A stretch of DNA of 64,000 bases, taken from Escherichia phage vB_EcoM_E9.1. Below are positions 8,401 through 40,938 of this stretch, piece by piece. Made by a program: the position numbers and the translations under genes. The stretch lies in the sequence record PP886230. One strand, given 5' to 3'. Under the pieces are notes generated by a model. The model did no database searches, had not been told where the DNA came from, and saw nothing but the letters and a program-made list of their open reading frames with translations. How positions within the stretch are numbered: the stretch's first letter is position 1; the number at the start of each line of letters is the position of its first letter.

Positions 8401-11400
8401 TATAATCTGCGTAAAGCATATCATTGAGTTCAACTGTACTGTTTTCACGACCAATCGCTTTCCAATAAATTGAATCGCGTGATTGTGATTTAATATACAA
8501 TGTCCAAATGTTTTCACTATCGGTAACTCTGATAATATCGCCAACTTGGTAGTTTTTAGTATTAGCATCTTCTAAGCTTGACTCTTGAGTATAAGTCGTG
8601 TTACTATCATATCCAACATCATACCAATCAGCATATGACCAGTACTGAGTCATGTCTAATGAGGTTCCTAGTGATTCAACATAATCAGATTGTTTAATCA
8701 TTTTATGTTGTCCCTCACCTTTGTTTTCTAACGTTATAGTAACAACACTACCCGCGTTTGCTGGACTATTCATTAACTGAATATATCCATTTTCGTCGAA
8801 GTGAATAAAATAAACAGCACTAGAAGTTAATGGATTTGGTAGATATCCACTAGTACTTAAAATAACAGCGTCATTTTCTTTAAATTTATCACTTTCAACT
8901 GCAATAACTAATTCATTATTGTAAGACAACACACGGAAAGAAACTTCATTAGGGTTAACTTCAGTGGTTTTAACATTAAACACATCTTCCATAACAACAC
9001 TATTAGTGGTTATGTTTTGTGATCTATAATAATTATTAGCACTTTCTACAAAGTTTCTACGAGCTTCTATAACATTTTGGAACCAAGTTTTGTTTGATCC
9101 TAAACCGTTATCAACATCTGGATATAATAAATTAATCACAGAACCTGATTCAGTAGTTTCTTGTCCAATTAAAGAATTCCACATTGAATCCCAAATTAGA
9201 GGGTTAAAGTTATAACTATCACCTTCCTTGCATAGTTGGTACTGATCATGTTTAACAACTTCAGTATTATCCATGTAATAAGAAATTGTCAAAATACTAG
9301 TATCATCATTAACTTTAAACTGCATATTACTAAGAATAAACGAGTTTTCATTGATTGGTGCAAACCAAGGAATGTTTAACTGTGATGGATCTTTAATAAT
9401 ACGAGCAATATCAGTACATGATTTTGTTCTGGTATGTAGTGGTGGTACATAAATGGTATCACGTACCCAGAAGTAGTATTTTGTAACATAAGTATCAGTT
9501 GAGCTATCATATTCCAAAAATGTACTATAGTTATCTTCAAGAGCGGTTCCGCTTGGTAGATACATAGTATTATTTTTGTTTTTCTTAGCAACGTCTTTAC
9601 AATACTTATCCCAATTATATGGCTCTACTGGAGAACAAACCCATTCCAACACATCAATGGTACTATGTGGTAATAAACGACCCCAGTTATAACGTTTGTA
9701 TTCATTAGTTGCATCAATATCAACGTTTCCGTCTGCATCATAAATTGCACGTGTATAATCCAAATAAAATGCAGTACTTGTATTCCACCATACTTGACCA
9801 ACTTTATCAGCACCCCAAGCCTGAATTAATTCACCATTGCTATTATATTGTGCTGGGTCTATTGGTGACGTATAAGTTACGTTTTGCATTGCTGCACCAG
9901 GAATAACCCCATTGATAGGGTCATACACATTTAGATATAATGCAGTAATGTTAGTACGTTCATCATATGTAGTTGGACGGTCAAAAAAAGTACTTTGTGG
10001 TGCTTTGTAACTATACTTTTTGTCAATATATGCTTGACGCTCTTCTGCACTGGCAAAACGTGATACATAACGATACAAACGTGGACGTGTATCTGGATCA
10101 GTAAATTCAATATCAATAGAAGTGTCAAATGGAACTACCATAACTTTAGGATCAGAACCAGCAGTATAATATTGACTTTCTACTGTTAAAGTATCTGGCA
10201 TAAAGTTAGTTTCATCAACAAAATAATAATAATCACCATCTTCAAGTGGTACATTATCAGTTAAAGTTACTTTACAAAATTGTTCAGCATACACATCGGT
10301 ATTTTCAATAGGTGTTATAGAAACCATTTGTACATTAGTATCAACTAATTCAAAAATATTCCATAAACCATTTCCGTCTTTAAACATCCAAACAGATTCA
10401 GGGTTTTCACCTTTACCATTAGTGTAAGTTATACGGTCATTATATGCAGTACTGAAATCTTTTGTAGTGTAAGATACTTCATCCAATGTTACTGGACCAA
10501 TATCTGGAAGTTGAATGTTTTCACTTCTTCCACTACGCATCGGGAATGAGAACTTACCATTTGGACGTGTAATCCAACGAGGATCTTTACCTTGTTCGCC
10601 GAAGTATACAATATTGTTTCCATTTCCATTTGAAGTAGCGTTTACATCAAAAGATACCATTTGTGGTTGTTGTTTAAATTGGTCATTGATTAGTTTAAAT
10701 TGAAGGTTTTTCTTACCATCAATATTACCATATGTACCAATTTTAAATGCCCATTCTTGTAATGCTTTATATTCATCAGTGTCATATGATTTAGAAACAC
10801 GAAGTACACGTTCTAAAACTTGGTTAGTACCTTTATCGTGAATGAATCCTTTATAGAAATCAACACGACTAACATCACTACTAATCATACGCTGTAGATA
10901 ATCACGAGATTGATAACCAATCAAATGGTTTGACAACTCTTGTAATTGTACATCACTTACTGGAGTTTCACTATCATAATAATGTTGGAAATCCGACACT
11001 AATTTTTCAAATGATGGTAGTGTTCCAGCTTCCAAGATAATAAATCCAGGAGCTTGTAGGCGACCAGTCCATGAACCAGTAATATATCCATACATTTTAA
11101 TTAGTTCTTGAATAGAACCATATGTTGGCTGATAAATGTAATCACCAAAAATAGTTTTATCATCAAAAATAACAGCATGTTCATATGAACACAAACTTAA
11201 ACGAATCAATGCAATGCGTTTATTAGATTCTAAAGTTCTAACAGTGAAGATATTTCCAATACGAGAAGTTTCAATTTCATATTGGCGAATACCTTGGTTA
11301 TTATCATCAAGTAATGACCATACACCACCATTATTTTGCGTAATAGATTGTACTGAACCAAAGTCTGCCCCAAATTTAGCGTTTGCAGAACTTGGGGTAC

Positions 11401-14400
11401 AAGAAATAAATTCACCAGTTACTAGAGAATTCTGACTCCAGATCACGAAATCTTTAGCAATAGTGTTCCAATCTTGTTGAGCACCACTATCATTTACATC
11501 TTCAAAAATCCAACCATGTTCTTTAAGATATTCACCATATCCACAAATAAAAGTATAAACTTCTTGGTAACTATTGAAAACTTTACCATATTCAATTGAA
11601 GCTTCAGACTTCCATTCATTATAATGAACAACATTACGGTTTTCCAATTTAAGAGTTACTTTTCTACCATTTTTTACGGGAAGTTTATATTTAAATTTAG
11701 CACCAACTAGATCATATCCATCAATCTGATATGCACTACCATTCCAAGTAATTTTGATCGCACTCATTTGCTCATCACGGATATTATTAGAACGAACAAG
11801 ACCAATGGTTTGGTTTTCTTGTGAAATAAGACCGAAAGATTTAGCATTGAATGTTAGCTGATCTGCTTTAGTAAATCCTCCAATTTTATGACCAACATTT
11901 ATATAAGAAGAACGAACTACATCCCCATACTTGGTGGTAATATTTTTATTTTGATACATCAAATGGTCACTTACAAACATTTGATAACCAATGGTTCTTG
12001 TGCTATTTTCACCATGAACTACTGTATTTTTATCAAAATTAATACGCTTACGTGTATCACCATAAAGGAATTGTGAACCATCAGTGAATACTTCTTTTAA
12101 GTTATCATTGCGGGTATCCCAGAAATAGTTAGCAAATTGTGCTGGTTTAGCTTTATACAAAAGCATCATTTGGTCATATGCAAACAATGTAGTGTTCATG
12201 TATGTAAATTCCATGTCACCCATATCACCATATGTCCAAGGTTCTGCTCTATGATTTAAAGATCCAGACACTAAACCTAAAATTTCAGGTGCAATATATT
12301 CAACCACACAAATATCAATACCAGAAGATGTTTTATTTCCAGTTTTTGTAATTTTGAATGGCTGTACACCAAATCTTTTATATTTGTCATATTGACCACG
12401 ACGATCACCAAATAAAATAGTTCCAGTACTGCTATCTCCAATAGTTCCGTCAATATCCCAAAGACCACTAGGAACTAAATCACCTTGCTCATTCATAACA
12501 AGTGCTTCATATACATATACAACATCACTATCACGTTCACCAACTTGAACAGCCGTTGGTTCGTATTCTTGGTTCCACCAAGTTGGACGTTGTGTAAAGC
12601 CAAACATTTCCCACGGATGGGTAGCTGGGCGATATGTACCATATTGGTCAGTGTAAATGGCACGCCATGAACCACGTGCAGGAATTTCAGTACTTTGGCC
12701 ATTAACTACATAATAAGTGCCAGTATAGTTCCAAGTTCTCCAATTGTTAGGATCATAATCATGTGTACTATTACTGATACCATTAGTTGCGGTGAAGTTA
12801 ATGTATCCACGTAGTAATAATGTTTGTTTCTCTTCAGCACTATATTCAGTTTTAGTGAAATATGGTGTAGGGAAAAGGTCATCACTATTCAATACTGGTA
12901 CGTAATCAACATCTTTGAATTTATTATCAATACTATTAAAAATTCTATTTTCTAATTCATATACAACATCATCCATTTTATCAACACCATTGATAACACG
13001 GTATGCTTTGGAAATAATACCAGTATGACTGATGTTATAACAGCTTGGTTTACTACCAGCAGTGAGGAATGTCGCTTTTTCTGGTACATATGCTTGAAGA
13101 ATACCTAAGAACTGTGGTGTTGGTGGTATAAATGCACGAATGAATCCAGAAGTACTTCCAACATTATCATAATAGAATGGGAATGAACTATCACGTCCCA
13201 TATTAATAGTAGTTAAAATTGCATCAACAATGTTTGCAGCACTATTTTGTAAAAAGTCTGATGGATTTTCATCATACATACGAAGCATTTGTGTATTAAA
13301 TTTATTAATGAATCTAAAATATTCAGATTGCATAAACATAGTTGCTTCAAACAAATCAATATCTTCATTTGCAGTATGTGCCATCAATGGAAGCATAGAT
13401 GCTTCATTTTGGATAATTTTAGTACCTACGCCATTATTAACCAATCCTTTAGCCAAACGTTCTTCATAGTCATTGAAATCATCAGAAGAACCACGTGTAA
13501 TGTTCTTTTGAATAATATCCTGAAAATGTAAAGTGTAGTCACCTTGGTTAATGTATATAATATTAGAATTATATGGGTTATTTTGTAGGTTGATTGGAAC
13601 TTCATATGCACCTAATTCTTTATTAGGAGTTACAGTACTGCTATAAGTTCTGATTTGAATAACAGAATCTTCATCCAATTCTACAGTACTATCTAGAGTG
13701 ATGCTTTGTACTTGACCTTTTGAAACATTTTTGGTATATTTGGACACATCAACACCATCAACCACAACTTCAATAATATCAGAGTCATTATCTAAAACTT
13801 TTTGTGCCAATTCGAATGTATGGTCATATTTTACAATCTGAACACCATCACCAGTAATTGGATGCCAATCTAGATAAGTTTCTCGGTCAGCTTTATAGTA
13901 CTGATATGTTCTATCAACTTCAATAACATATGCATACATACCATCAACTGGTTCTTTAAAAACTTCCATATCATAAACAGTACTGAATACACGATACATA
14001 TCAGTACGTTGGACTTGTGGAGTTTGTTTTACAAATTGTTTAGAGTACTCTTCTGAACGAACCCAATCGGTTTGAAGATTCATTTCATTATTTTCATCAA
14101 TAATGTTATAATAGTATAAACCATCAATTTCAACTTCTTTTCCAAGATGGTCATAGGTATAACGTTGGGATTGTAAAAAGTTTTCATAAATGTAATAATT
14201 ATAATCACCAAGTTCAATGTTATATCCATATACACTATCAGTTGCATAGTTGTAATTTATTTTAAAACCAAACAACTCTGAACCTTTAAAGTTACTTGAT
14301 GGATATGTAGTACTGTTGTCAAGTTTGATACCATTACGATCATAAAGTTGGAATTTAGGGAATACGTTAACACTAGTTTTTGATTGTGCACGAACCCACA

Positions 14401-15409
14401 AAGATCCATTCCAGTACATAGAACTATTACCATACTCATTACCTTTAGTGATTAGAACAACATCACCATCTTGTGGTTCACCACTTGGGCGTGATTCGGT
14501 TTCTTCTTCTGGATCTAGTGCTAAACCATAAACACGAGTACCATCTTGCATTTTTTTCACATATACATTATAAATTCTATTGTTTTCACCATTGTTACCA
14601 ATACTGGTGAATAGAATACGCATTCCATCTTGCGGAATAATACCATCAATACGTATACCACTATTAATATCTTTTTGAACGATATCTTCAGGTTTAATAA
14701 TATCAGAGAACAGATCAACAGTTCCACGGAATTTTGTACCGTAGTTAATTAGCTCAATATTTTTATTATATTCAATAATTGGTGCACGTGCACGAATAAA
14801 ACGTGAATCTTGCATTAATTCTTCAGTTAATATTGAGCCATCTTCTAATGTTTCACCTAAAGTATACCAAAAGTTTTGTAGTGACCATGTATTACCATTA
14901 AGTGCTCCACGTTCCATTACAATGTAATCAGGTGAAGTAATATTATAAGAGTTTTTAGTATCCCAAAGATATGAGCTAAAATTGTTCATTTTATTTGGGT
15001 TAATAGCTGGAGTCCATGCATAAAACTTACCGTTGAACAAACGGCTTTCATTATCGGTTAGTGCTCCATAATGATTCATGTATCCAACTAGATCATCATA
15101 AAATTGAATTGAACGAATTGTCGAATCATCATTTTTTGAGACGTAAGCAGTGGACAACTGATAAAGTTGACGTGCTACAGTACTTTCATGTAAGAAGATA
15201 TTACCAGCAGCGGCAGGAGAACCCATATCACCAATATAGCCGTCAACTAATTCGTTTTCAGCCGGATTAAACCATTGTTGAATAACATCATCACTGACTT
15301 TTTGAATATCTTCTAAGCCTTGCATCCACTCAGGCAATCTTTTAATAAAAAGCTTCTTCTGTACTGCTTCAGCCATCTGTGTAGGTTGAAACTTAAAATT
15401 ATTAGTCAT
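5438..15409 (-). CDS. giant virion protein, about 3320 aa; possibly a baseplate/fibre protein in the gp7 position
   Basis: Uninterrupted 10-kb ORF directly downstream of the gp6-like gene. The second ATG (15409) has a GGAG SD; the first ATG (15439) does not. No catalytic motif recognised. Confidence 0.7.
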   Translation of the reverse strand: MTNNFKFQPTQMAEAVQKKLFIKRLPEWMQGLEDIQKVSDDVIQQWFNPAENELVDGYIGDMGSPAAAGNIFLHESTVARQLYQLSTAYVSKNDDSTIRSIQFYDDLVGYMNHYGALTDNESRLFNGKFYAWTPAINPNKMNNFSSYLWDTKNSYNITSPDYIVMERGALNGNTWSLQNFWYTLGETLEDGSILTEELMQDSRFIRARAPIIEYNKNIELINYGTKFRGTVDLFSDIIKPEDIVQKDINSGIRIDGIIPQDGMRILFTSIGNNGENNRIYNVYVKKMQDGTRVYGLALDPEEETESRPSGEPQDGDVVLITKGNEYGNSSMYWNGSLWVRAQSKTSVNVFPKFQLYDRNGIKLDNSTTYPSSNFKGSELFGFKINYNYATDSVYGYNIELGDYNYYIYENFLQSQRYTYDHLGKEVEIDGLYYYNIIDENNEMNLQTDWVRSEEYSKQFVKQTPQVQRTDMYRVFSTVYDMEVFKEPVDGMYAYVIEVDRTYQYYKADRETYLDWHPITGDGVQIVKYDHTFELAQKVLDNDSDIIEVVVDGVDVSKYTKNVSKGQVQSITLDSTVELDEDSVIQIRTYSSTVTPNKELGAYEVPINLQNNPYNSNIIYINQGDYTLHFQDIIQKNITRGSSDDFNDYEERLAKGLVNNGVGTKIIQNEASMLPLMAHTANEDIDLFEATMFMQSEYFRFINKFNTQMLRMYDENPSDFLQNSAANIVDAILTTINMGRDSSFPFYYDNVGSTSGFIRAFIPPTPQFLGILQAYVPEKATFLTAGSKPSCYNISHTGIISKAYRVINGVDKMDDVVYELENRIFNSIDNKFKDVDYVPVLNSDDLFPTPYFTKTEYSAEEKQTLLLRGYINFTATNGISNSTHDYDPNNWRTWNYTGTYYVVNGQSTEIPARGSWRAIYTDQYGTYRPATHPWEMFGFTQRPTWWNQEYEPTAVQVGERDSDVVYVYEALVMNEQGDLVPSGLWDIDGTIGDSSTGTILFGDRRGQYDKYKRFGVQPFKITKTGNKTSSGIDICVVEYIAPEILGLVSGSLNHRAEPWTYGDMGDMEFTYMNTTLFAYDQMMLLYKAKPAQFANYFWDTRNDNLKEVFTDGSQFLYGDTRKRINFDKNTVVHGENSTRTIGYQMFVSDHLMYQNKNITTKYGDVVRSSYINVGHKIGGFTKADQLTFNAKSFGLISQENQTIGLVRSNNIRDEQMSAIKITWNGSAYQIDGYDLVGAKFKYKLPVKNGRKVTLKLENRNVVHYNEWKSEASIEYGKVFNSYQEVYTFICGYGEYLKEHGWIFEDVNDSGAQQDWNTIAKDFVIWSQNSLVTGEFISCTPSSANAKFGADFGSVQSITQNNGGVWSLLDDNNQGIRQYEIETSRIGNIFTVRTLESNKRIALIRLSLCSYEHAVIFDDKTIFGDYIYQPTYGSIQELIKMYGYITGSWTGRLQAPGFIILEAGTLPSFEKLVSDFQHYYDSETPVSDVQLQELSNHLIGYQSRDYLQRMISSDVSRVDFYKGFIHDKGTNQVLERVLRVSKSYDTDEYKALQEWAFKIGTYGNIDGKKNLQFKLINDQFKQQPQMVSFDVNATSNGNGNNIVYFGEQGKDPRWITRPNGKFSFPMRSGRSENIQLPDIGPVTLDEVSYTTKDFSTAYNDRITYTNGKGENPESVWMFKDGNGLWNIFELVDTNVQMVSITPIENTDVYAEQFCKVTLTDNVPLEDGDYYYFVDETNFMPDTLTVESQYYTAGSDPKVMVVPFDTSIDIEFTDPDTRPRLYRYVSRFASAEERQAYIDKKYSYKAPQSTFFDRPTTYDERTNITALYLNVYDPINGVIPGAAMQNVTYTSPIDPAQYNSNGELIQAWGADKVGQVWWNTSTAFYLDYTRAIYDADGNVDIDATNEYKRYNWGRLLPHSTIDVLEWVCSPVEPYNWDKYCKDVAKKNKNNTMYLPSGTALEDNYSTFLEYDSSTDTYVTKYYFWVRDTIYVPPLHTRTKSCTDIARIIKDPSQLNIPWFAPINENSFILSNMQFKVNDDTSILTISYYMDNTEVVKHDQYQLCKEGDSYNFNPLIWDSMWNSLIGQETTESGSVINLLYPDVDNGLGSNKTWFQNVIEARRNFVESANNYYRSQNITTNSVVMEDVFNVKTTEVNPNEVSFRVLSYNNELVIAVESDKFKENDAVILSTSGYLPNPLTSSAVYFIHFDENGYIQLMNSPANAGSVVTITLENKGEGQHKMIKQSDYVESLGTSLDMTQYWSYADWYDVGYDSNTTYTQESSLEDANTKNYQVGDIIRVTDSENIWTLYIKSQSRDSIYWKAIGRENSTVELNDMLYADYSVHNDNGSLSNREINVRKALALLKNSFDLHQSEIVFDMVKYVHVEQSVVDWVFKTSYIYIVGLEQSLVQNYSNDNLINQIVEYFEEVKPYRTKIRSQIEQKTSDDDLIKGLCNDLDPNGYIFVDGYWIKTEKDIWDYEYAQFNEITQKWEQVGSLPSDFVTPNRRFQEIDIIMHYDNIQCKPNEDLASINELVSVNNKYQSNEKDAVSNYELQRYIYSFPEYSEETFDLLIAYQMQIYYPELDVTLGTAYGVNQWYKDHAEDLEATDEFTATLERVYKESTHNDMFTDLRQYVQYNTLANRLKLYKDISDEKIHDEVGCGFSGLTYNDNPSTRLPLGFSSSNDYNYGYFEISSELYQKYISLIKDKNPDASDYEVKVKLEVEYGVYVYRYDEVGGDTRFYTDAIHVLAGMRGLFDKDATDKYEKAEEILSKTPIDIYAITMIPRKYVYLNVNGVYQSIPDEQSIDDFMEDYFITNGEMVELAEINLDDLPLDQNNPMYSDYQYILDSITEAKYFNDMNAFDNLALESQTSSIKWEVKDDEVDPYIVDISDINPSGRDVGQIRFTVDGYGFDNVSLVQLRDNSRYQTEGMAIINPYKHTEAIVSIPSYAKIENDINKTTSKFDEKYFYRVRSINSLTEAEIVDNDLSDGDKVMIFTPDGEDFVRYQNHTWETILRVSNIKNNTTPILFTVRNTGKETIELIDESTGAVLRYDNITLAQQNEPVQPLALNIVRVRTFADPEFVKNGIKLYEQNRNYTIDVINYDVFYDTTLNGGKYNDGITPDDVDVWIISNEIFDVDGITIDNGYNLPITGAGVLSELARTKMTDSLEINVIEYDSSVIQPFRNNEGIWVYGFPMVDGMYIGVVGGTVTNITTISEENTTYVSQPKSISPYSIRNNVLSGSAANMNDIISIGYEKVEVRNANNLLRGVMYSAEHDFKLNTTYSFNGINLGNYDMLKRYTQNSYTIDLSVYTDSLQVSGNDIKNILLVK

Positions 15410-15455
15410 TTTTGGACTCCATATAATTCGTTCATTCATTTGATTTATTTATGAT

Positions 15456-15488: not shown

Positions 15489-18400
15489 TTAAGAACCGAT
15501 ATTAATATTACTTTTAGCTAGTGAGTTAACAATTTGAACATTTTCAACAGATGCAGTACTCAAAAATATTTGGTCTGAACGTGAAGGGATTTCAAATAGA
15601 GAGCCAAATTTTGAATTTGGATTTTGTGCAACTATAACAATGGTACTAATATGTCTACCTAACTGTGAGTGTATGTAAGTACACAAATCAGTATAATAGA
15701 AACTTTCACCGAAATCCCAGTTATCAACATTGAAGTATTCATTAGTTAATGCTATAACATTTTGACGAATTTCATCGTCACTCATTGTGCTGTTTGGTAA
15801 TTTCACTACTTTAAAATCAGCTTTGTAATCTTCAGCAGCACTGTTGCCAAATAAAGGTAAGTACTCAGCACTATGCCAAATAATACTATCACTAATGACT
15901 ATTTTTTGTTCAACATCTTTGAACATATCTTTCAATTCAACCGATGTAGGTGGTTTAGGAATACTACCAACAGCATTATTTTTCAACCAAACGTCAACTT
16001 CAGTTTTATATGAATTGGTTAATACATACATATCAATTAAGTTTGTTCTACTAGGATCAATGCGATTGTCGTCAGGTGCATAGTGTTTCCAATGGAAGTC
16101 TATACTAGTACGTGCATTAGTTTTAACAGTGTACTGTGAAGTAACATCTTTGTATCCATAATAATCTAGCTTCTGATTCTCGTCAGCATTAGTTCCCATG
16201 TTATTAATTGCACGATAAAAAGCCAATTCAGGACTAACAGTGCCAGTATCATCGGAATAAGTTAAATTACTAATTAGCTGTCCTAAACGATCATTGTTGT
16301 TACCAACTGTTTGTTCAATAAAATAATATTTACCATCATAGTTAAAACCAACTAAAAATCCAGAACCTTTACTATATAATCCACTCAATGTGGTTGAACG
16401 AATTGCGTTATTTCTAACAAATTCAGTTCTTTTATATGCATTCGGCTCTGCCAAGGCTTGTTCCATTGTATAAGACCACGATGAATCAAGAAGTGTGAAG
16501 GTATCATTTGGTAACGACAGTACTGATATAGTGAAATCACTATTTTCCTGAAATACCAAAATACCACCATATTTTAATGCATCGGTTCCAGTCCAAGTAG
16601 GAACAATTTCTTTAAATTGGTTTGGTTCCAATGGTATACCATTACTATCTACTTTCCTAGATGTAACAATAACACGAGAACCATCTAGATAGCCATTCTC
16701 TTGTTGAATTGTGTCATAAATTTGAAAATCTATATTACTTGTCAATCCTGAATTACTACTACTAGTAGTGTTAGATGATAAAATTTCAATCTTATCACTT
16801 TGAACTGTACCAGTACTAATATCAGTAATTTTTTTAGATGATACAAAGTAAAATCTTACTTTTTCTCCACCCACAAAAATATATTCAATACCGTTAGCAT
16901 CAAATTCCCAAGTTTCTGCTGTATATTTTACATTAATTATAATTAAAACTTCATTACCATTATATACAATAGTATCATCATTGGTACTTACTTCAATAGG
17001 AACCCATGATGTCGTTTCTTTGTCATGTACAATAACAAAATCAGTTTTTTTATCTAGCATAGCAGAAATTGCTTGAACTTCAACCGAGTTAAATCTAGTT
17101 CTATATGGTAAAATGTACTCTATGGCTTGCATTCCACTTGGAACCGATGTACTCAGTACATAAAATCCATTATCCAATACACTAACTACACTAGCCCATA
17201 TAGTAGTTCCAGAATTAGAAAATTTAATTAGAGTACCAACCTGATATGAACCATAAACTGTACCAGATGAACCCAAAATTCTACCATATGTGTTAGTTGT
17301 ATAATTTGAATTGTATACCGGAGTCCATGCTTGTTGTATTTCAATACCAATTGTATTTGAAGGAAACGCTTGGTAACGTTGTATTACCGCATTTTCACCA
17401 ATCAATGGTTGAATATTGTCAATAACAATACTAGCATTTGTTTTTGTGGTTGGTAGCAATAATGACCTATTAAATTGTGTGTTTTCTTGATATAACGCAC
17501 CATCATCACTAAAAACATCGGTATTTTGATACTTACCAGTAGGATCATTAATATCAATAAATCTTGATTGTCCACTATAAATTCTATTAATAGCTTTAGA
17601 TTTAAGTACAGTATTGCCTAAACTAAGTGGTGCAATATTATAATCTTCACCATTGACAAAACGGTTTTGTGTATAGTACATTTGTGGTGCACGTGCTTTA
17701 ATCTGCTCAATAGTCTCTGCACTTTGTGCACGGTCGGACTCATATTGTAATGAAAAACGTATATCCAATGTACTAGATTCATAACTTGACTGTGTTTTTG
17801 TACGATATGTATATTTTACGCTTTTGTTTTGAATTTCAGAAGTTTTAATGTTATATGTTTTACCATTACTAACACGATACCATACGCGGAACGTCCCACG
17901 GGGAACAACACCACTTCTTGAGTCTGGATACTTAATTGTTATTTGATCTTTATCACGAGTAGTAACAGCAAAAATTGTTTTTAATTGACGATTAACAGTG
18001 TTATATGCAATACTTTCCATTGATGGAACTTTTGTCCATTTGGTACGAACAATACCATCTTCATTTATTTCTTGAACCCATACATCAGTTTCGTTGATAT
18101 TATCAACGTTAATATCTTGTATACGGTTCTCTTCACGGATAGCATATTGATAATCTTGATATGTCAATGTACCTTGTACGAAATATACAAAAAAACCAGT
18201 ATTTGGTGAGCTAAATCCATTACCATCATTTTGATAAACAATATATTTTTGCTCTTGTGGTTCTGGATGTCGTTCTTCAACACCAACAGACGTAATATCA
18301 GGATTCACTACTTCAAATGTCATAGATTCACCATTGACAGTTGCAATAAATGGAATACTGGGTGCTGTCATTGGGATGGTGTTCATTCGATATAGTTGAC

Positions 18401-18950
18401 GGGAGACACCATTAACATCAATACGCTTGACTGGATTACCAAATTGGTTAGTACTGACAAATGAACTGTTCATTACTAGAATGAAGTTTTCATACCAGTT
18501 AGCATCCATCGGGTCATTCCAACGAATGATTTTATCTTTTAATGATTCATTAAAACTATTACGAACATCTTGGTTTGTTTTAATTTCGGTTAATTTAGCA
18601 ACTGCACGACCTGGATATGAGCGGCGTGGTGAGTAAGAAATCATTTTAGCTAGTTTTAGTACTGATGCACGACGAGTTGCAGTATCTAAAAAGTTTTCAC
18701 GTGTGTTCAAATCCATACGAAATGCCAAGTTCTGCCCTAGCATAGAAATCGTATCTAAAATAAAAATAAACTGGTCGTTTTCGATCCAGTCGTTGAATGA
18801 GTCTGGGTAAGTTGCACGTAGATAATCAATCATACTCTGACGGATAGTATCGAAGTCATAAGCTGTAAGATTGATTTTATAAAAACTTTCATATACTTGA
18901 GTCCAATCCTCACCAGCGTATAAATTTGATTGCCTTTTTTGTTGTGACAT
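15489..18950 (-). CDS. baseplate wedge protein, gp6 / Baseplate_J-like, 1153 aa
   Basis: Assigned mainly by position (immediately after the gp25-like gene, the usual gp25-gp6 order in contractile tails) and size; no motif verified. Confidence 0.45.
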   Translation of the reverse strand: MSQQKRQSNLYAGEDWTQVYESFYKINLTAYDFDTIRQSMIDYLRATYPDSFNDWIENDQFIFILDTISMLGQNLAFRMDLNTRENFLDTATRRASVLKLAKMISYSPRRSYPGRAVAKLTEIKTNQDVRNSFNESLKDKIIRWNDPMDANWYENFILVMNSSFVSTNQFGNPVKRIDVNGVSRQLYRMNTIPMTAPSIPFIATVNGESMTFEVVNPDITSVGVEERHPEPQEQKYIVYQNDGNGFSSPNTGFFVYFVQGTLTYQDYQYAIREENRIQDINVDNINETDVWVQEINEDGIVRTKWTKVPSMESIAYNTVNRQLKTIFAVTTRDKDQITIKYPDSRSGVVPRGTFRVWYRVSNGKTYNIKTSEIQNKSVKYTYRTKTQSSYESSTLDIRFSLQYESDRAQSAETIEQIKARAPQMYYTQNRFVNGEDYNIAPLSLGNTVLKSKAINRIYSGQSRFIDINDPTGKYQNTDVFSDDGALYQENTQFNRSLLLPTTKTNASIVIDNIQPLIGENAVIQRYQAFPSNTIGIEIQQAWTPVYNSNYTTNTYGRILGSSGTVYGSYQVGTLIKFSNSGTTIWASVVSVLDNGFYVLSTSVPSGMQAIEYILPYRTRFNSVEVQAISAMLDKKTDFVIVHDKETTSWVPIEVSTNDDTIVYNGNEVLIIINVKYTAETWEFDANGIEYIFVGGEKVRFYFVSSKKITDISTGTVQSDKIEILSSNTTSSSNSGLTSNIDFQIYDTIQQENGYLDGSRVIVTSRKVDSNGIPLEPNQFKEIVPTWTGTDALKYGGILVFQENSDFTISVLSLPNDTFTLLDSSWSYTMEQALAEPNAYKRTEFVRNNAIRSTTLSGLYSKGSGFLVGFNYDGKYYFIEQTVGNNNDRLGQLISNLTYSDDTGTVSPELAFYRAINNMGTNADENQKLDYYGYKDVTSQYTVKTNARTSIDFHWKHYAPDDNRIDPSRTNLIDMYVLTNSYKTEVDVWLKNNAVGSIPKPPTSVELKDMFKDVEQKIVISDSIIWHSAEYLPLFGNSAAEDYKADFKVVKLPNSTMSDDEIRQNVIALTNEYFNVDNWDFGESFYYTDLCTYIHSQLGRHISTIVIVAQNPNSKFGSLFEIPSRSDQIFLSTASVENVQIVNSLAKSNINIGS

Positions 18951-19951: not shown

Positions 19952-19987
19952 AAAGATATCCTCGTTTTATTTATAGTACTAAAATAT

Positions 19988-25971: not shown

Positions 25972-26017
25972 CTTTTTGATTCTCCATAATAAGGGAACAT
26001 TTGATGTATTTATACGT

Positions 26018-27968: not shown

Positions 27969-30116
27969 ATGCTAAACATTACACGTATATCTATGAGGAA
28001 CTTCTTTTCATTTGGTAATGCACCACAATCAATTGATTTGAATGGTTCCGACATTTCATTAGTACTGGGTCAAAATAATGATGCAGTTATTGAAGGTGGT
28101 GACAGCACCGGACGTCGAAATGGTGTCGGGAAAAGTGCTATTATTCAAGGATTAGTTTTTGGATTATTTGGTAAAAGTATTGGTAATGATATTAAAATTC
28201 CGAACCTAGTCAATAAAACTAATGGCAAAAATTGTGAAGTAGTTGTAGAGTTTGAAAAAGATGGTGTACAATATCTGGTTGAACGTGGGAGAAGTCCCAC
28301 GTATTTCAATTTTGTTACTTTAGGTAAAGATAATAAAATTGAAGATGAATCAAGGGGAGAAAAGAAAGACACACAAGAAGATTTGAATGAAATTCTTGGT
28401 ATATCTCAATTATTATTTGAACATATTGTAGTACTGAATGCTAACGTTGAACCTTTCTTAGCTTTATCCACACAAAAACAACGTGATATGATAGAAGAAC
28501 TTCTTGGAATAACACAGTTGACGGAAAAAGCTGAAATGCTAAAGGAGATGTATAAGGATACTAAACGTTTAGCCGAACAAGAAAAGTTCAAAAATGAAAC
28601 TGTAGCTGCAAGTAATGAACGTATTCAAAAAAGTATTGAGACACTACAAGAACAGGCAAACCAGTTTGAAATTGATAAAAATAATAGAGTATCTAAGTTA
28701 AATGAAGAGTTGAATATATATAAAACTTTAGACTTTAATGACCTCTATGAAGCTGCTGATATAAAAGAGAAAGCTCTTATTCATAACGCAAAGCGTGGGG
28801 AAATCGAACGCCGTGTACAAGAGTTGGCTTTAAAATTTGATGCATATGACCGTGAACTTGAAAGATCTAAAAGAGCATTAAATCTAAGCATTGATAAGCT
28901 AAAAACTATTGATATTAGTGCAGAATTGGAAAATCATAATGAGTTGGAGATATGGAAACAGTTAGAGGGTATTCTAAAAGAGAATAATAACCAAAAACGT
29001 TTCAAAGAACAAAAACTAAACTCACTAAAAATAGCTTTAAAAGGATATGAATGTTCAATTAATGCTGAAATTGACAAATTATCAACAGTTGAAAACAGCA
29101 AATGTCCACTTTGTATGTCTGAATTAGAACATAACGAACATACTTCTTCAATTAAAGACAAAATCCAAAGTACTATTAATGATCTTCAAGCTAAAATTGA
29201 TAGTTCTTCTTCTGAAATTGAAACATTACTTCAAGAAATTGATAGTATTGAGATTTTTGATATGCCACCTAAGCCTGTGACATATTATAATACACTTTCA
29301 GAAGCACAAATGCATGAACATAAGCTTCAAGAATTGGTCAGAAAGAGTGAAGAAGAACAAATAAACATCTATGCAAATGAACTTATGTCATCATATGATG
29401 AACTTAACTCATATGAACTAATGGAAGTTCCAGATACATTAAACAAATATGAAGTTAAAGAGTTAGAAATGACTGTAAATTCATTATCACAGCAATTAGA
29501 TCGTGAATTGAAGACTACTAACACATTTATTAGCCAAATTAATACCCTGAAGACTGATTCTTTAGTACCAATCGATTATAGCGACTATAATAATCTTGAT
29601 AAAATGTCAAATCACCAAGATTTCTTGGTTAAATTACTTTTAAACAAGGATTCTTATGTCCGTAAACGTATTATTGAGCAAAATATCTCATATTTGAATA
29701 CACGACTTCAGTACTATATCGATATGTGCGGTTCTGAGCATAATGTTGTGTTTTTGAATGATTTGAGTGTTGAAATTGAGAAGAGTGGACAGTACTTTGA
29801 CTATAAACAGCTTAGTAGAGGTGAGCGTACAAGGGTAAACATCGCATTATCTTGTGCTTTCCGTGATACATATGAGTCATTATACCAAAGTATTAATATT
29901 CTTATCATTGATGAGATGATTGACCAAGGTCTTGACTCAAGTGGTGTTCTACGTGTGTGGTCTATCTTCCAAGATATGGCTGCTGTACGTGGTAAGAACG
30001 TTTATGCTATTTCCCACAGAGAAGAGTTACTATCTAAGACTGAAAAAATCCTCAAAGTTGTTAAAGAGGACGGTTTCAGTACTGTTGAATATGCAACCCT
30101 TGACGATGTTTTCTAA
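27969..30116 (+). CDS. 46: gp46 Rad50/SbcC-like ATPase
   Basis: Walker A RRNGVGKSAI, long central coiled-coil-like region, Walker B ILIIDEMIDQGLD; directly follows the gp47-like gene. Confidence 0.85.
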   Translation: MLNITRISMRNFFSFGNAPQSIDLNGSDISLVLGQNNDAVIEGGDSTGRRNGVGKSAIIQGLVFGLFGKSIGNDIKIPNLVNKTNGKNCEVVVEFEKDGVQYLVERGRSPTYFNFVTLGKDNKIEDESRGEKKDTQEDLNEILGISQLLFEHIVVLNANVEPFLALSTQKQRDMIEELLGITQLTEKAEMLKEMYKDTKRLAEQEKFKNETVAASNERIQKSIETLQEQANQFEIDKNNRVSKLNEELNIYKTLDFNDLYEAADIKEKALIHNAKRGEIERRVQELALKFDAYDRELERSKRALNLSIDKLKTIDISAELENHNELEIWKQLEGILKENNNQKRFKEQKLNSLKIALKGYECSINAEIDKLSTVENSKCPLCMSELEHNEHTSSIKDKIQSTINDLQAKIDSSSSEIETLLQEIDSIEIFDMPPKPVTYYNTLSEAQMHEHKLQELVRKSEEEQINIYANELMSSYDELNSYELMEVPDTLNKYEVKELEMTVNSLSQQLDRELKTTNTFISQINTLKTDSLVPIDYSDYNNLDKMSNHQDFLVKLLLNKDSYVRKRIIEQNISYLNTRLQYYIDMCGSEHNVVFLNDLSVEIEKSGQYFDYKQLSRGERTRVNIALSCAFRDTYESLYQSINILIIDEMIDQGLDSSGVLRVWSIFQDMAAVRGKNVYAISHREELLSKTEKILKVVKEDGFSTVEYATLDDVF

Positions 30117-30127
30117 TTAAAGATAAA

Positions 30128-30150
30128 GGGAGCCTTAGCTCCCTTTTTTT
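30128..30150 (+). terminator. intrinsic terminator
   Basis: GGGAGC-ctta-GCTCCC followed by T7. Confidence 0.6.
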
Positions 30151-30626
30151 ATATCAACCATATTTAATTTACCGTCCTTAATCAGCTTTCTAGCTTGCTT
30201 TACACGAGCAGTAGTGTTACTACCAGGGACAACTCCTAACCCTTCCAGAATCGCGTTTTGCTGTGTTGCTGGAAGCCTTTTAAACTTATTAACATCCACA
30301 GTTAGTGCAGTGTGATGTATAACTTGTTCATCGTCAGGAATGCTGTTATTACGCTCTAAGTAATCAGCAAGATTTCTGAGTACCTCATATAATGGTTTAT
30401 CAGTTAAGTGCTTCATATATCGATTGAAGCTGTTTTGTACCTTTCCTTCCCAAGCATTGACTTCATTTTGAAGAACTTGTCTACAATGTTGGTTACCATA
30501 GTGGTAGTGATCCAGTACTGGTTTAGTTATTGGTTCTTTAATTATAGGATCTATTCCATTTTGTTTCTTTAGCAATTCGTTTCGATAGTTTGCAGCATCC
30601 TTACTATCTTTTAATCTTTTTTTCAT
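30135..30626 (-). CDS. endonuclease VII (gp49)-like His-Me finger protein lacking the four zinc-ligand cysteines
   Basis: LDHYH...RQVLQNEVNAWEGKVQNSFNRY aligns with the T4 endo VII LDHDH...RGLLCNLCNAAEGQMKHKFNRSG region as recalled. Minus-strand TATAAATA at plus coordinates 30657-30664, about 30 nt upstream of the ATG. Confidence 0.5.
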   Translation of the reverse strand: MKKRLKDSKDAANYRNELLKKQNGIDPIIKEPITKPVLDHYHYGNQHCRQVLQNEVNAWEGKVQNSFNRYMKHLTDKPLYEVLRNLADYLERNNSIPDDEQVIHHTALTVDVNKFKRLPATQQNAILEGLGVVPGSNTTARVKQARKLIKDGKLNMVDIKKGS

Positions 30627-30718
30627 AATTCCTCACCAAACTATTTGTTATCAAAATATTTATAGATTAGTTATTTGCAATATTTTAAGTACTTAATGAA
30701 TATTTTTATAAAAATAGT

Positions 30719-30746
30719 GAGACAACTTTAAAGTTTGTGCTATAAT
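30719..30746 (+). promoter_or_regulatory. early sigma70-like promoter (GAGACA-N16-TGcTATAAT) driving a noncoding region
   Basis: GAGACA 30719-30724, 16-nt spacer, TGc-TATAAT 30738-30746; no ORF downstream for about 450 nt. Confidence 0.55.
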
Positions 30747-30752
30747 GTTTGT

Positions 30753-31207
30753 TGTAGTAATGACAATCCTGTTGAATGCAGAAATGCATATAAATTAGAA
30801 CCTGATCCTATCGAAAATGTAGATGGCAGATGAGCAGTTCAACAGTGCGATGAGCAAAAGAAACCCGTTAGATGTGGGCATAGTTTGAACCCCTCACGGC
30901 AATGCGGCTCAATAAAGAACTCCGATAAGCATACAGAGAGTTCCTAGATAGACATATAAGGATCGCACCTTACCAGATTTGCTAAGGGAGTTTATTAAGT
31001 GATTTTAATAAACAGCCTGAAGTTTGATTGTATAGACTTTCAGGTGAGTGTCAGGATGATTAAGACTGACGACCGTTGCACATGACTGCGATAGAGAGAA
31101 ACAGAGCAACCCGCTTTCGTTCTTAATATATTTTTAAGAAATTCGCAATACAATAAATGCTGAAACCATCAGCGTCAAGAAATAGAGACTTCATTGTCTC
31201 TTTTTTA
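30753..31207 (+). ncRNA. candidate structured noncoding RNA, about 450 nt, class unknown
   Basis: No ORF longer than about 28 codons on either strand; visibly more G+C than the flanks; several hairpins including a GAAA tetraloop (30776-30789); bounded by a promoter and an intrinsic terminator. Confidence 0.45.
31184..31207 (+). terminator. intrinsic terminator ending the candidate RNA
   Basis: AGAGAC-ttcatt-GTCTCT followed by T-run 31201-31206; a second GC hairpin CCCC-tgc-GGGG lies at 31214-31235. Confidence 0.65.
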
Positions 31208-31425
31208 TTGTCTTCATTCCCCTGCGGGGGGATGAAAATGTCCTCAACAAATCCCGTCAAGTATTAAATCTTTTAAAGTTCTTTATAATTAATTTAATTA
31301 AATGAATATGAGTTACGTAGTAACGAATATTCTTCAGCTAACGAATGAAATGAGTTAGATGAATCCAATAATATTAAAATTAATCCTTTCATAATTCAAT
31401 TCAAATAATTCTGTAGTTTAAAACC

Positions 31426-31451
31426 AAAAAAAACCAGCAACAATGTGCTGG
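31426..31451 (-). terminator. intrinsic terminator for the minus-strand operon
   Basis: On the minus strand CCAGCA-loop-TGCTGG followed by U8 (plus-strand A8 at 31426-31433). Confidence 0.6.
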
Positions 31452-31462
31452 CTATATGAAAA

Positions 31463-31672
31463 TTAGTGCTTCTCGTTTTGTTTTTTAATTTTTTTATTAA
31501 AAGACTTAACTAATAAGTCTCTATCTATTAATGGCATATTAAGGAGTGTTCCATAGTCAATGTTATCCATATATACAGAACATTCCATTAGTGCATTTTT
31601 GATTTCTGACTTATTCAGTTCTATCTCCTTCAGTACTTCTTGTATTTCTTCAGGAGATGACTGGAGAAGCAT
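31463..31672 (-). CDS. hypothetical protein, 69 aa
   Basis: Track ORF; stop/start overlap with the upstream 278-aa gene. Confidence 0.45.
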   Translation of the reverse strand: MLLQSSPEEIQEVLKEIELNKSEIKNALMECSVYMDNIDYGTLLNMPLIDRDLLVKSFNKKIKKQNEKH

Positions 31673-32508
31673 TACTCGAAAAAATGACTAGGATCATATT
31701 TTAGTCCATCAATTTCCCATTGATGATTACATCCATCACATTCTACTTCCATACTATGAGATACACCAATTTCAAGTACTTCATCCATTTTTTCACGAAT
31801 TAGTTTAAGTACTCCCTTCGATTGTTGTCCAAGCCATTCATTAATAAATTCTTTTTCAACTACTTCATCACCATCTGGTGTTATAATTTTTGCAATAACT
31901 CCACCAATCATATCGAAGTTAAGTTGAGCCATGTTTTCAAATACTTCAGAAAATATTTTTACTTTTTCATCTTTATCAATATCAGCAGTTTCAAGAAACT
32001 TAGTCTTCTGCTGCTCACTGAACATGCGTTCAGCAAACGATGAATATTCTTTCCATGTCAGTGGTCTAAATTCTAAACGTAGTCCATTATCTAAATCAAT
32101 TGATGGGATTTCTTCAAATGCTTGTGCAGTTTCAAGAAGATATGATAGATTACGTTCAAATCGACCTTCTTTTTCACATTCAGGACATACAACGTTAATA
32201 TCATATGTTTCTTCTTTAGAAGCAACTTTAATAGCAATAAGAAGCATTTCAACGTCATTTACATACAACTCATCAGCGTCAATTACATTAGGAACACAGT
32301 TTTCAATAACACGGGATACTGCATCTCCGTTTAGTAACATATCGGGGGTATTAAGTGTCATTTCATCACGTGCACTACGTGCACAAACTCCACATTTGAC
32401 ACCTTTTGGACCTAGAACTCCTTCTTTATAAGGAATAACGCCGTTTGTAACTAACTTAGTACTGATCTCTTCAATTTTAGTGTACTTAGCAAGTGGATTC
32501 ATAGCCAT
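31672..32508 (-). CDS. hypothetical zinc-binding protein with three CxxC pairs, 278 aa
   Basis: CGVC, CPEC and CDGC motifs; divergent from the head operon. Confidence 0.55.
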   Translation of the reverse strand: MAMNPLAKYTKIEEISTKLVTNGVIPYKEGVLGPKGVKCGVCARSARDEMTLNTPDMLLNGDAVSRVIENCVPNVIDADELYVNDVEMLLIAIKVASKEETYDINVVCPECEKEGRFERNLSYLLETAQAFEEIPSIDLDNGLRLEFRPLTWKEYSSFAERMFSEQQKTKFLETADIDKDEKVKIFSEVFENMAQLNFDMIGGVIAKIITPDGDEVVEKEFINEWLGQQSKGVLKLIREKMDEVLEIGVSHSMEVECDGCNHQWEIDGLKYDPSHFFE

Positions 32509-32599
32509 TTTATTAAATCTCCATGTAATAAATGTGTTTTAGTATTTATAAGACTAAAAAAGATTAAATTAAACTAATTTTTATATTCTCTATAGTTTC

Positions 32600-38489: not shown

Positions 38490-38555
38490 CATTTTAAAAA
38501 TATAAATATCTGTATGTTGAAGTACAGATATTTCAGTACTTAAAGGAGAGAACGA

Positions 38556-39709: not shown

Positions 39710-39727
39710 TATAAATAATATCATACT
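39710..39727 (+). promoter_or_regulatory. late promoter (TATAAATAATATCATACT)
   Basis: Exact T4-type TATAAATA at 39710-39717, about 45 nt upstream of the capsid gene ATG. Confidence 0.55.
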
Positions 39728-39762: not shown

Positions 39763-40938
39763 ATGTCACAACTACTAAATGAATCCAAATGGGTAGCAGT
39801 AAAAGAGAAACTAGTTGAAGGTCTACAGGGTACTCGTAAGTCTGTAATGGAAACTGTTCTTGATAACCATCGTAAAGTTATGCTAACTGAATCCGCAACT
39901 TCTGGTGCAACTACCGCTGGTAACATCGCTACTCTAAACAAAGTGATTCTACCAATTATGCGTCGTGTAATGCCAACCGTTATTGCTAACGAAATCATCG
40001 GTGTTCAACCAATGACTGGTCCAGTTGGTCAGATCCACACCCTACGTGTGCAATATGCTGATAACGCACCTGGTGTTATCGCTGGTGAAGAAATGCTTTC
40101 TCCATACAAAATCGCTAAATCCTACTCTGGTGATCTAAATGCGGATAATAGCAACCCACAAGCTGCTCCTACTAGCCAACTAGAAGGTACTATGGGTCGT
40201 CGCGTTAACATCCGTATTCTACGTGAAACTGTTGAAGCGAAATCTCGTCGTCTATCTGCACGTTGGACTGTTGAATCTGCACAAGATGCTCAATCCCAAC
40301 ATGGTGTTGACGTTGAAGCAGAACTAATGGCTGCAATCGCTCAAGAAGTTACCGTAGAAATCGACCAAGAGCTACTAAGCCGTCTACGTGCACTACCTGG
40401 TGCTGCTGCTGTAACTTATGACCAATCTAAAGTTACTGGTGTTGCAACCTTCGTTGGTGATGAGCACGCTGCTCTAGCAACTCTAATTAACCGTCAAGCA
40501 AACGAAGTTGCTCGTCGTACTAAGCGTGGTGCTGCAAACTGGGCTGTTGTTTCCCCAACTGCACTAACCATTCTACAATCTGCTACTACTTCTAGCTTTG
40601 CACGTACCACTGAAGGTACTTTCGAAGCACCAACTAACGTTAAGTTTGTAGGTACTCTAAACAGCACTATGCGTATTTTTGTTGATACTTATGCAAGTGA
40701 TGCAGAAGATATTCTAATTGGTTATAAAGGTAATGCAGAAACTGATGCTGGGGTGTTCTATTGCCCATACATCCCACTAATGGCTTCCGGTACTGTAATG
40801 GACCCTAACACTGGGGAACTCGTGACCACATTCCTTACCAGGTATGGTTATGTACAATTGACTGATAGTACTTCTTCTCTTGGTAACGCTGCTGACTACT
40901 ACAGCAAAATCGCTATCAAAAACGTTACTTTCATGTAA
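39763..40938 (+). CDS. 23: major capsid protein
   Basis: Follows protease and scaffold genes; late promoter and strong terminator; codon choice looks like a highly expressed gene. Sequence homology to T4 gp23 not verified. Confidence 0.65.
   Translation: MSQLLNESKWVAVKEKLVEGLQGTRKSVMETVLDNHRKVMLTESATSGATTAGNIATLNKVILPIMRRVMPTVIANEIIGVQPMTGPVGQIHTLRVQYADNAPGVIAGEEMLSPYKIAKSYSGDLNADNSNPQAAPTSQLEGTMGRRVNIRILRETVEAKSRRLSARWTVESAQDAQSQHGVDVEAELMAAIAQEVTVEIDQELLSRLRALPGAAAVTYDQSKVTGVATFVGDEHAALATLINRQANEVARRTKRGAANWAVVSPTALTILQSATTSSFARTTEGTFEAPTNVKFVGTLNSTMRIFVDTYASDAEDILIGYKGNAETDAGVFYCPYIPLMASGTVMDPNTGELVTTFLTRYGYVQLTDSTSSLGNAADYYSKIAIKNVTFM

Follow-up and report, generated by a model that had tools for sequence, protein, structure and literature searches.

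Endonuclease VII without its zinc-ligand cysteines in an Asteriusvirus jumbo coliphage, and a candidate structured RNA upstream of its gene

Endonuclease VII of bacteriophage T4 (gp49, encoded by gene 49), the textbook junction-resolving enzyme, is a dimeric nuclease of the His-Me-finger type. Its substrates are Holliday junctions and other DNA branches, and by cutting them it clears the products of recombination-dependent replication before and during headful packaging. Gene 49 is reportedly expressed from a late promoter. The published family pattern comprises a DHDH motif with a CX2-4C pair on its N-terminal side and a CX2C pair on its C-terminal side (Fang et al. 2018, PMC6083498), and the family is defined by the DHHRN set of residues, which in T4 serve as ligands of the catalytic metal or are required for catalysis (PMC6083498). 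The structural zinc site formed by the four cysteines (Cys4) has so far been treated as integral to the enzyme, since the family motif has both cysteine pairs and, as the T4 mutants are summarized in later literature, the substitutions C23S and C61S kill it. Here we describe a minus-strand gene in a 64,000-nucleotide stretch of DNA (hereafter the window, whose numbering is used throughout) from Escherichia phage vB_EcoM_E9.1 (sequence record PP886230; Table 1). Its product, a protein of 163 amino acids (aa), is a zinc-less variant inside the T4 endonuclease VII family and not a canonical member of it.

As judged from family profiles and a predicted structure, homology to endonuclease VII covers the whole protein, not the His-Me finger alone. 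Residues 1-150 match positions 1-155 of the 159 in the profile PHROG 423 ("endonuclease VII"; E=1.3e-35), which T4 gp49 matches from end to end (E=5.4e-61), and in a BLASTP comparison the two proteins are 34% identical across 77 residues (E=8e-5). A phmmer search of the Protein Data Bank (PDB) with the single sequence gave no match, and a family profile was therefore needed: the profile of an alignment of 21 jumbo-phage homologues matches the T4 endonuclease VII chains (E=8.7e-7, T4 residues 33-131) and runs well beyond the His-Me finger, into the helical region near a conserved I-H motif. The AlphaFold2 model built from the same alignment has a mean predicted local distance difference test score (pLDDT) of 92.3, and T4 endonuclease VII is its sole significant Foldseek match in the PDB (E 5e-7 to 5e-6, template modelling (TM) score 0.60-0.71, 162 columns). 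The monomer model (predicted TM score 0.64) is extended in shape, which is compatible with a domain-swapped dimer but is no demonstration of one. It contains the full-length architecture of endonuclease VII (N-terminal helix, His-Me finger, long helix and C-terminal helical domain), and the protein belongs to the His-Me finger (beta-beta-alpha-Me, or HNH) superfamily. The initial annotation, made from the sequence alone, had called the protein an endonuclease VII homologue on the strength of its His-Me finger region; PHROG 423, the profile match in the PDB and the structural comparison extend this to the full length. A weak match of residues 113-139 to the Pfam family GAAD (E=0.062) was treated as noise.

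None of the four zinc-ligand cysteines is present. The columns of T4 C23, C26, C58 and C61 are occupied by D26, I29, Q53 and V56, with no cysteine or histidine among them, in four agreeing alignments: (i) BLASTP to T4 gp49, (ii) a hidden Markov model alignment to PDB 1e7d, (iii) a 153-sequence MAFFT L-INS-i alignment, and (iv) BLASTP to P0146, a homologue bearing all four cysteines (the CCCC state) that is 39% identical over 157 columns (E=5e-24). The last of these is the most telling. The loss of all four ligands had been recognized in the initial annotation, which read the replacing residues as I, I, Q and E; these alignments uphold I29 and Q53 and put D26 and V56 at the other two positions. 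D26, P27 and I28 are invariant in the 21 jumbo-phage homologues, and some close homologues still have cysteine in the V56 column. On the contig of P0146, from a metagenomic phage, genes for proteins of 289, 344 and 709 aa follow one another, the 709-aa protein having SMC_N/AAA_23 domains; in size and order they fit the sigma-factor, gp47-like and gp46-like module of the window (279, 349 and 715 aa). This correspondence suggests that related phages probably carry the two forms, with and without the zinc site, as orthologues.

A profile search of 1.84 billion representatives clustered at 50% identity yielded 596 relatives at E<=0.001, from which the best 150, together with one close homologue, were examined. 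In these 151 nearest representatives the four zinc columns hold no cysteine in 79 cases, one in 60, two in 2 and three or four in 10, and the single cysteine retained by the 60 is nearly always that of the C23 position. The alignments thus place the zinc-less form as a common one in one large branch of the endonuclease VII family. The initial annotation had regarded it as structurally unusual, a view countered both by its majority among the nearest relatives and by the many zinc-knuckle-free His-Me fingers in the superfamily (PMC5714182). In the cysteine-less class the C23 column is Asp in 75 of 77 sequences, followed by Pro and then Ile or Leu, and the C26 column is Thr in 49 of 77, otherwise Leu or Ile, followed by Gly or Lys. 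The resulting D-P-x-T/I-G/K reads as the classic C-P-x-C-G zinc-knuckle consensus with both cysteines replaced. The C58 column holds Asp, His, Gln or Ser in this class, and the C61 column Val, Ser, Thr or Ile.

Cysteine is absent from the whole N-terminal domain in 24 of the 77 cysteine-less sequences, and from the entire protein in 10 of all representatives. The protein studied here has a lone cysteine, C48, whose column alternates with Val and Ile in the representatives and which is for this reason taken to be a buried hydrophobic position. Apart from the equivalents of the catalytic H41 and H43 and of H105, no column of the representative alignment is Cys or His in more than 50% of sequences; H105 is conserved in T4 too, where all four zinc ligands are cysteines (PMC6083498). 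A clade-specific salt bridge between Arg at the T4-59 column and the new Asp was considered and rejected, the Arg being about as common in the cysteine-bearing classes. Zinc-bearing and zinc-less members are still 33-39% identical. A crude neighbour-joining tree (146 columns) suggests that the CCCC state changed independently at least 5-6 times, a count to which we attach little weight given the shortness of the protein and the lack of bootstrapping.

The catalytic residues are retained. D39, H40, H42, R49, N57 and E60 align with T4 D40, H41, H43, R54, N62 and E65, and the motifs LDHYH (L38-H42) and QNEVNAWEG (Q53-G61), previously singled out as keeping the likely catalytic residues, are present as quoted. 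These six residues and G61 are among 40 columns that are invariant in the 21 jumbo-phage homologues. Further afield, the D, H and H are conserved, bar one Asp-to-Glu, in all 149 representatives that cover the columns, and the Asn of the N57 column is conserved across all three cysteine classes tabulated. The column of T4 E65 (E60, window 30447-30449) is Glu in this protein and Leu, Ile, Val or Met in about half of the representatives. Despite this change D/H/H/R/N are retained throughout, that single Asp-to-Glu apart, and the residue of the E65 column may differ in role across the clade.

We consider it likely that the protein is an active orthologue of T4 gp49, i.e. a late-expressed junction-resolving and packaging nuclease that operates without structural zinc. 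This reading is drawn from the catalytic residues kept among sequences of at most 50% mutual identity, the retention of the whole architecture, and the single gene copy; published surveys list these phages with endonuclease VII as their resolvase of the T4 type (PMC7824862, PMC5259590). Catalysis would proceed as in T4, with D39 and N57 holding the catalytic Mg2+, H40 activating water, and H42, R49 and E60 assisting. The T4 Cys4 site joins the N-terminal knuckle and the beginning of the His-Me helix, a task that would here fall to a metal-free arrangement. The backbone motif of the knuckle appears to survive as D-P-I-I/T-K/G in place of C-P-x-C-G, the first cysteine having given way to an Asp that is nearly invariant. 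Most likely, the Asp of the Asp-Pro turn takes over from the T4 thiolate/zinc cluster as acceptor of backbone N-H hydrogen bonds, while the other three former ligand positions would be filled by hydrophobic or polar residues packed as ordinary core or surface. Main-chain N-H stabilization of Cys4 sites has been described for Hpy99I (PMC2699513), and the isolated beta-bridges at residues 25 and 32 of our model fit a retained knuckle hairpin. Transcription would occur late, from the TATAAATA promoter read by the phage gp55-like sigma factor. We infer enzymatic activity, dimerization and the replacement of zinc by hydrogen bonds, and for the Asp hydrogen-bond network it is the sequence pattern only that speaks.

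Several points weigh against this reading. According to a later summary of the mutants, T4 C23S and C61S show neither activity nor DNA binding (Giraud-Panis et al. 1995, via PMC6083498), so compensating changes must exist in cysteine-less enzymes. Literature searches found no biochemistry on any cysteine-less member, and nothing relevant on zinc-less endonuclease VII or on the biochemistry of the phiKMV-like and Rak2-like enzymes. The score against Pfam PF02945 (Endonuclease_7) is 14.8 bits (E=0.028), under the curated gathering cut-off of 23.6, as is expected from the loss of four high-information cysteine columns; a match at E<=0.01 is given by 11 of 21 close homologues. AlphaFold is confident on zinc-site folds with or without metal, and the model is silent on stability and metal dependence. 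Finally, the look for another resolvase, which showed none, covered only the first 50 kb of the SHEFM2K annotation in a genome of about 350 kb.

The initial annotation had also raised the prospect of a changed function. In one such reading the endonuclease VII scaffold was kept and its job became that of a sequence- or modification-specific nicking enzyme, a homing endonuclease or a defence nuclease. The DHHRN family offers precedents in the restriction enzyme Hpy99I and the homing endonuclease F-CphI (PMC6083498, PMC2699513), and the presence of Leu, Ile or Val in place of T4 E65 in about half of the representatives indicates that the active-site surroundings drift in this clade. However, the likeness of Hpy99I and F-CphI to endonuclease VII is confined to the catalytic domain, whereas our protein matches T4 endonuclease VII over its full length, including the C-terminal domain, and itself retains E60. 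Moreover, its gene is single-copy, the endonuclease VII genes of phages GAP32 and CBB have the same RNA-bearing gap upstream (described below), unlike mobile homing genes, and the contig of the CCCC homologue has the same sigma-gp47-gp46 run. With architecture, catalytic residues and genomic setting all conserved, we regard a change of job as improbable.

Somewhat less probable still is that the protein is a decayed remnant, catalytically dead or poorly folded and at most DNA-binding, with another resolvase doing the work. The inactivity of the T4 cysteine mutants, as summarized in the source cited above, and the sub-threshold Pfam score would fit such a remnant, and the check for other resolvases (RuvC, RusA and endonuclease I-type) covered the first 50 kb of the SHEFM2K annotation. 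Decay is at odds with the retention of all five DHHRN residues in about 150 representatives at <=50% mutual identity, which calls for sustained purifying selection on catalysis, and with the 40 invariant columns mentioned above. The gene also has its own promoter, Shine-Dalgarno (SD) sequence and terminator, and jumbo phages are reported to have resolvases of the endonuclease VII and RuvC types in a nearly complementary distribution (PMC7824862). That a structural metal is still bound through other ligands (D26 with Q53, or in relatives with a His in the column of the latter, or C48/H47/H104/H105) is very unlikely: the near-invariant Asp of the C23 column, the frequent His or Asp of the C58 column in the cysteine-less class and the near-invariance of C48 in jumbo-phage homologues could be read in its favour, but the remaining two columns (Thr/Leu/Ile and Val/Ser/Thr/Ile) are non-ligating for zinc, the C58 column is Gln here, C48 gives way to Val and Ile as buried positions do, the only Cys/His columns above 50% are those of H41, H43 and H105, and in a scan of candidate sites (C48, H47, H73, H104, H105, or a cysteine pair at the T4-38 and T4-53 columns) no such column was conserved and the pair did not co-occur.

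An active, zinc-free endonuclease VII is therefore the reading that we retain, and we class the protein as a zinc-less variant because it agrees with the family in profile, catalytic residues and fold, and departs from it in the zinc site and the Pfam gathering score.

Late expression, also proposed in the initial annotation, is supported by the surroundings of the gene. The T4-type late-promoter motif TATAAATA lies 31 nt from the ATG and occurs eight times in the window (10.1 expected by chance). Seven of the eight copies are intergenic, although intergenic DNA makes up 6.3% of the window; for at least six of eight copies in this space the binomial P is ~1.5e-6, a significance inflated somewhat by the AT-rich nature of the spacers. 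Six copies sit 17-48 nt 5' of starts on the same strand, and the genes behind them include those of the baseplate hub (31672..32508), the major head protein (39763..40938) and endonuclease VII itself. In GAP32 and CBB, TATTAAATA is found at the equivalent place upstream of the endonuclease VII genes, and an ATAAATA late-type motif has been reported upstream of structural genes in these related phages (PMC5259590). Taken with the gp55-like sigma gene in the window, these observations support a putative T4-type late promoter for the endonuclease VII gene, and the TATAAATA set as a whole is consistent with a T4-type late regulon.

The source phage is an Asteriusvirus jumbo coliphage, whose segment 28000-33000 is 99.4-99.8% identical to phAPEC6, PBECO4, 121Q, SP27 and relatives; "endonuclease VII" is the existing annotation of the 163-aa gene in related Asteriusvirus records. 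Homologues of 58-100% identity fall into more than 100 clusters, with one gene copy per genome, and this breadth, together with the invariance of D39, H40, H42, R49, N57, E60 and G61 in the jumbo-phage homologues, leads us to regard the gene as real and under selection. It is convergent with the gp46-like gene, and its stop codon lies within the loop of a hairpin at 30125-30146 that looks like a bidirectional terminator common to both genes. Just past the gp46-like gene are those of the gp47-like phosphoesterase and the gp55-like sigma factor, and baseplate, portal and head genes lie around. Elsewhere in the window, the minus strand contains an ORF (open reading frame) of 3333 aa (5438-15439), followed by one of 1153 aa (15489-18950), whose products are presumably giant virion or fibre proteins of a 'hairy' jumbo phage.

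Directly upstream of the endonuclease VII gene there is an 836-bp ORF-poor gap (30627-31462). Its part at ~30783-31279 is 67-75% identical to unannotated intergenic DNA of distant Rak2-like phages, in which it has 4-5 matching places per genome. The copies share ~70% mutual identity and carry no annotation in GenBank. The best match in GAP32 and in CBB is likewise immediately 5' of endonuclease VII, the other copies being elsewhere in the genome, and in these two phages as in ours this copy stands back-to-back with the endonuclease VII late promoter. An exact 29-nt core pattern was found at 17 loci on ~11 jumbo-phage contigs of IMG/VR. Folding of seven aligned copies with RNAalifold predicts 103 pairs in 17 helices, with two long-range closing helices, and in 39 of the 103 pairs both partners have changed with pairing preserved (against 17.8 such pairs in shuffles and 4-8 in slid-partner controls). 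Paired cells on the predicted structure amount to 95.7%, against 85.0% in shuffles. With 20 copies, the fold is better on the plus strand (-68.0 kcal/mol, 88 pairs, 48 with compensatory changes) than on the minus strand (-52.7 kcal/mol, 74 pairs, 35 with compensatory changes). Ahead of most copies the plus strand has a conserved extended -10 element, TGnTATAAT (window 30738-30746). A search of Rfam 15 with the candidate returned no match at E<=10, a tRNA search of the gap found none present, and no description of the RNA candidate was found in a literature search. The ~530-nt element looks like a structured RNA family, so far undescribed, of Rak2-like jumbo phages. Its transcription would diverge from the endonuclease VII late promoter, and it may deserve more attention than the zinc-less endonuclease VII itself.

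Table 1. Positions of the endonuclease VII gene, its sequence motifs and associated features in the window (copies of the RNA candidate on other sequences are given by locus)
Feature	Position	Strand	Basis
Endonuclease VII homologue, coding sequence, 163 aa, stop included	30135..30626	minus	ATG start
Former zinc knuckle D26-P27-I28-I29, for T4 C23-L-I-C26	30540..30551	minus	alignments
Codons D39-H40-Y41-H42 = T4 D40-H41-D42-H43, catalytic metal ligand and catalytic histidines	30501..30512	minus	alignments; T4 roles PMC6083498
Q53-N-E-V56, for T4 C58-N-L-C61; second former ligand pair, start of His-Me helix	30459..30470	minus	alignments
Codons N57-A-W-E60 = T4 N62...E65; N57, second catalytic-metal ligand	30447..30458	minus	alignments
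SD sequence GGTGAGG, 4 nt 5' of endonuclease VII ATG	30631..30637	minus	read from sequence
T4-type late-promoter motif TATAAATA, 31 nt 5' of endonuclease VII ATG	30657..30664	minus	sequence
Further TATAAATA, 17-48 nt 5' of structural-gene starts	19968-19975, 26007-26014, 32543-32550	minus	
Further TATAAATA, 17-48 nt 5' of structural-gene starts	38501-38508, 39710-39717	plus	
Nine-pair G+C-rich hairpin, T-runs on both strands	30125..30146	both	terminator scan and sequence
gp46-like SbcC/Rad50 ATPase gene, 715 aa, convergent with endonuclease VII gene	27969..30116		
gp55-like late sigma factor gene, 279 aa	26103..26942		annotation
Structured RNA candidate, ~530 nt	~30753-31285	plus	covariation, multi-copy
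Other copies of the RNA candidate	L008:21413-21893; also L009, L010, L011, L012, L013, L014-L030	minus (L008)	

Among described enzymes, T4 endonuclease VII (PDB 1EN7, 1E7D, 1E7L, 2QNC, 2QNF) is the one that our protein resembles in its full-length PHROG 423 match, the same fold from N-terminal helix to C-terminal helical domain, the catalytic D/H/H/R/N/E, the conserved H105 equivalent, predicted late-promoter expression and length (163 vs 157 aa). It differs in the missing Cys4 site, a structure-based identity of only ~22-25%, a loop between the two beta-strands that is shorter by four residues, a four-residue insert before the IHH motif, and the adjoining gp46/47-like genes. Both cysteine pairs of the published DHHRN/Endonuclease_7 (PF02945) pattern are missing, here and in most near relatives. 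Ralstonia phage RSB1 (Autographiviridae) encodes a similar protein, gp21, which is also a PHROG 423 member, lacks cysteine at the four columns, and has an S-P-I-T-G knuckle and Q...E. Unlike our protein, a Vectrevirus homologue retains the classical C-P-I-C-G ... C-R-G-C-N. The rV5-like (Vequintavirinae) protein has a D-P-I-L knuckle and four cysteines shifted to T4 positions 27, 38, 53 and 60, which could represent a relocated metal or disulfide site, or be incidental; such a homologue, from Escherichia phage PMBT16 (L002:1414-2019), is 49.5% identical over residues 5-95. Some of the annotated endonucleases VII of the RSB1, rV5-like and Vectrevirus group are shorter (~120 aa).

On balance we lean, by a narrow measure, towards the view that there is a large endonuclease VII lineage without structural metal, spanning Rak2-like jumbo phages, some Autographiviridae and many metagenomic phages, in which C-P-x-C-G became D-P-x-T/I-G/K, apparently several times and with one-cysteine intermediates still extant. 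The literature searched contained no description of such a lineage. If it exists, the family signature CX2-4C...DHDH...CX2C is too narrow, and phages have more than once released an essential late enzyme from its need for host zinc and its exposure to thiol oxidation; the picture of the enzyme's place in the phage life cycle would be unchanged. The loss of the cysteine site also means that annotation based on Pfam misses many such genes in this branch. The lineage would offer a natural system for studying how a minimal treble-clef/His-Me domain is stabilized without metal, and a basis for engineering metal-independent, oxidation-resistant reagents that cleave junctions or mismatches.

Zinc loss is not new in kind. 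NEIL1, of the Fpg/Nei family, is said to contain a 'zincless finger', a precedent for a metal-free zinc-finger-like module in a different family, whereas the loss considered here lies inside the endonuclease VII lineage. Many His-Me fingers lack the zinc knuckle (PMC5714182), and those that do, e.g. P1 Ref, are precedents for a module that keeps its shape without metal, although they too belong to different families. What is new is its occurrence inside the endonuclease VII family, where it is widespread and can be compared with zinc-bearing enzymes that are still close relatives.
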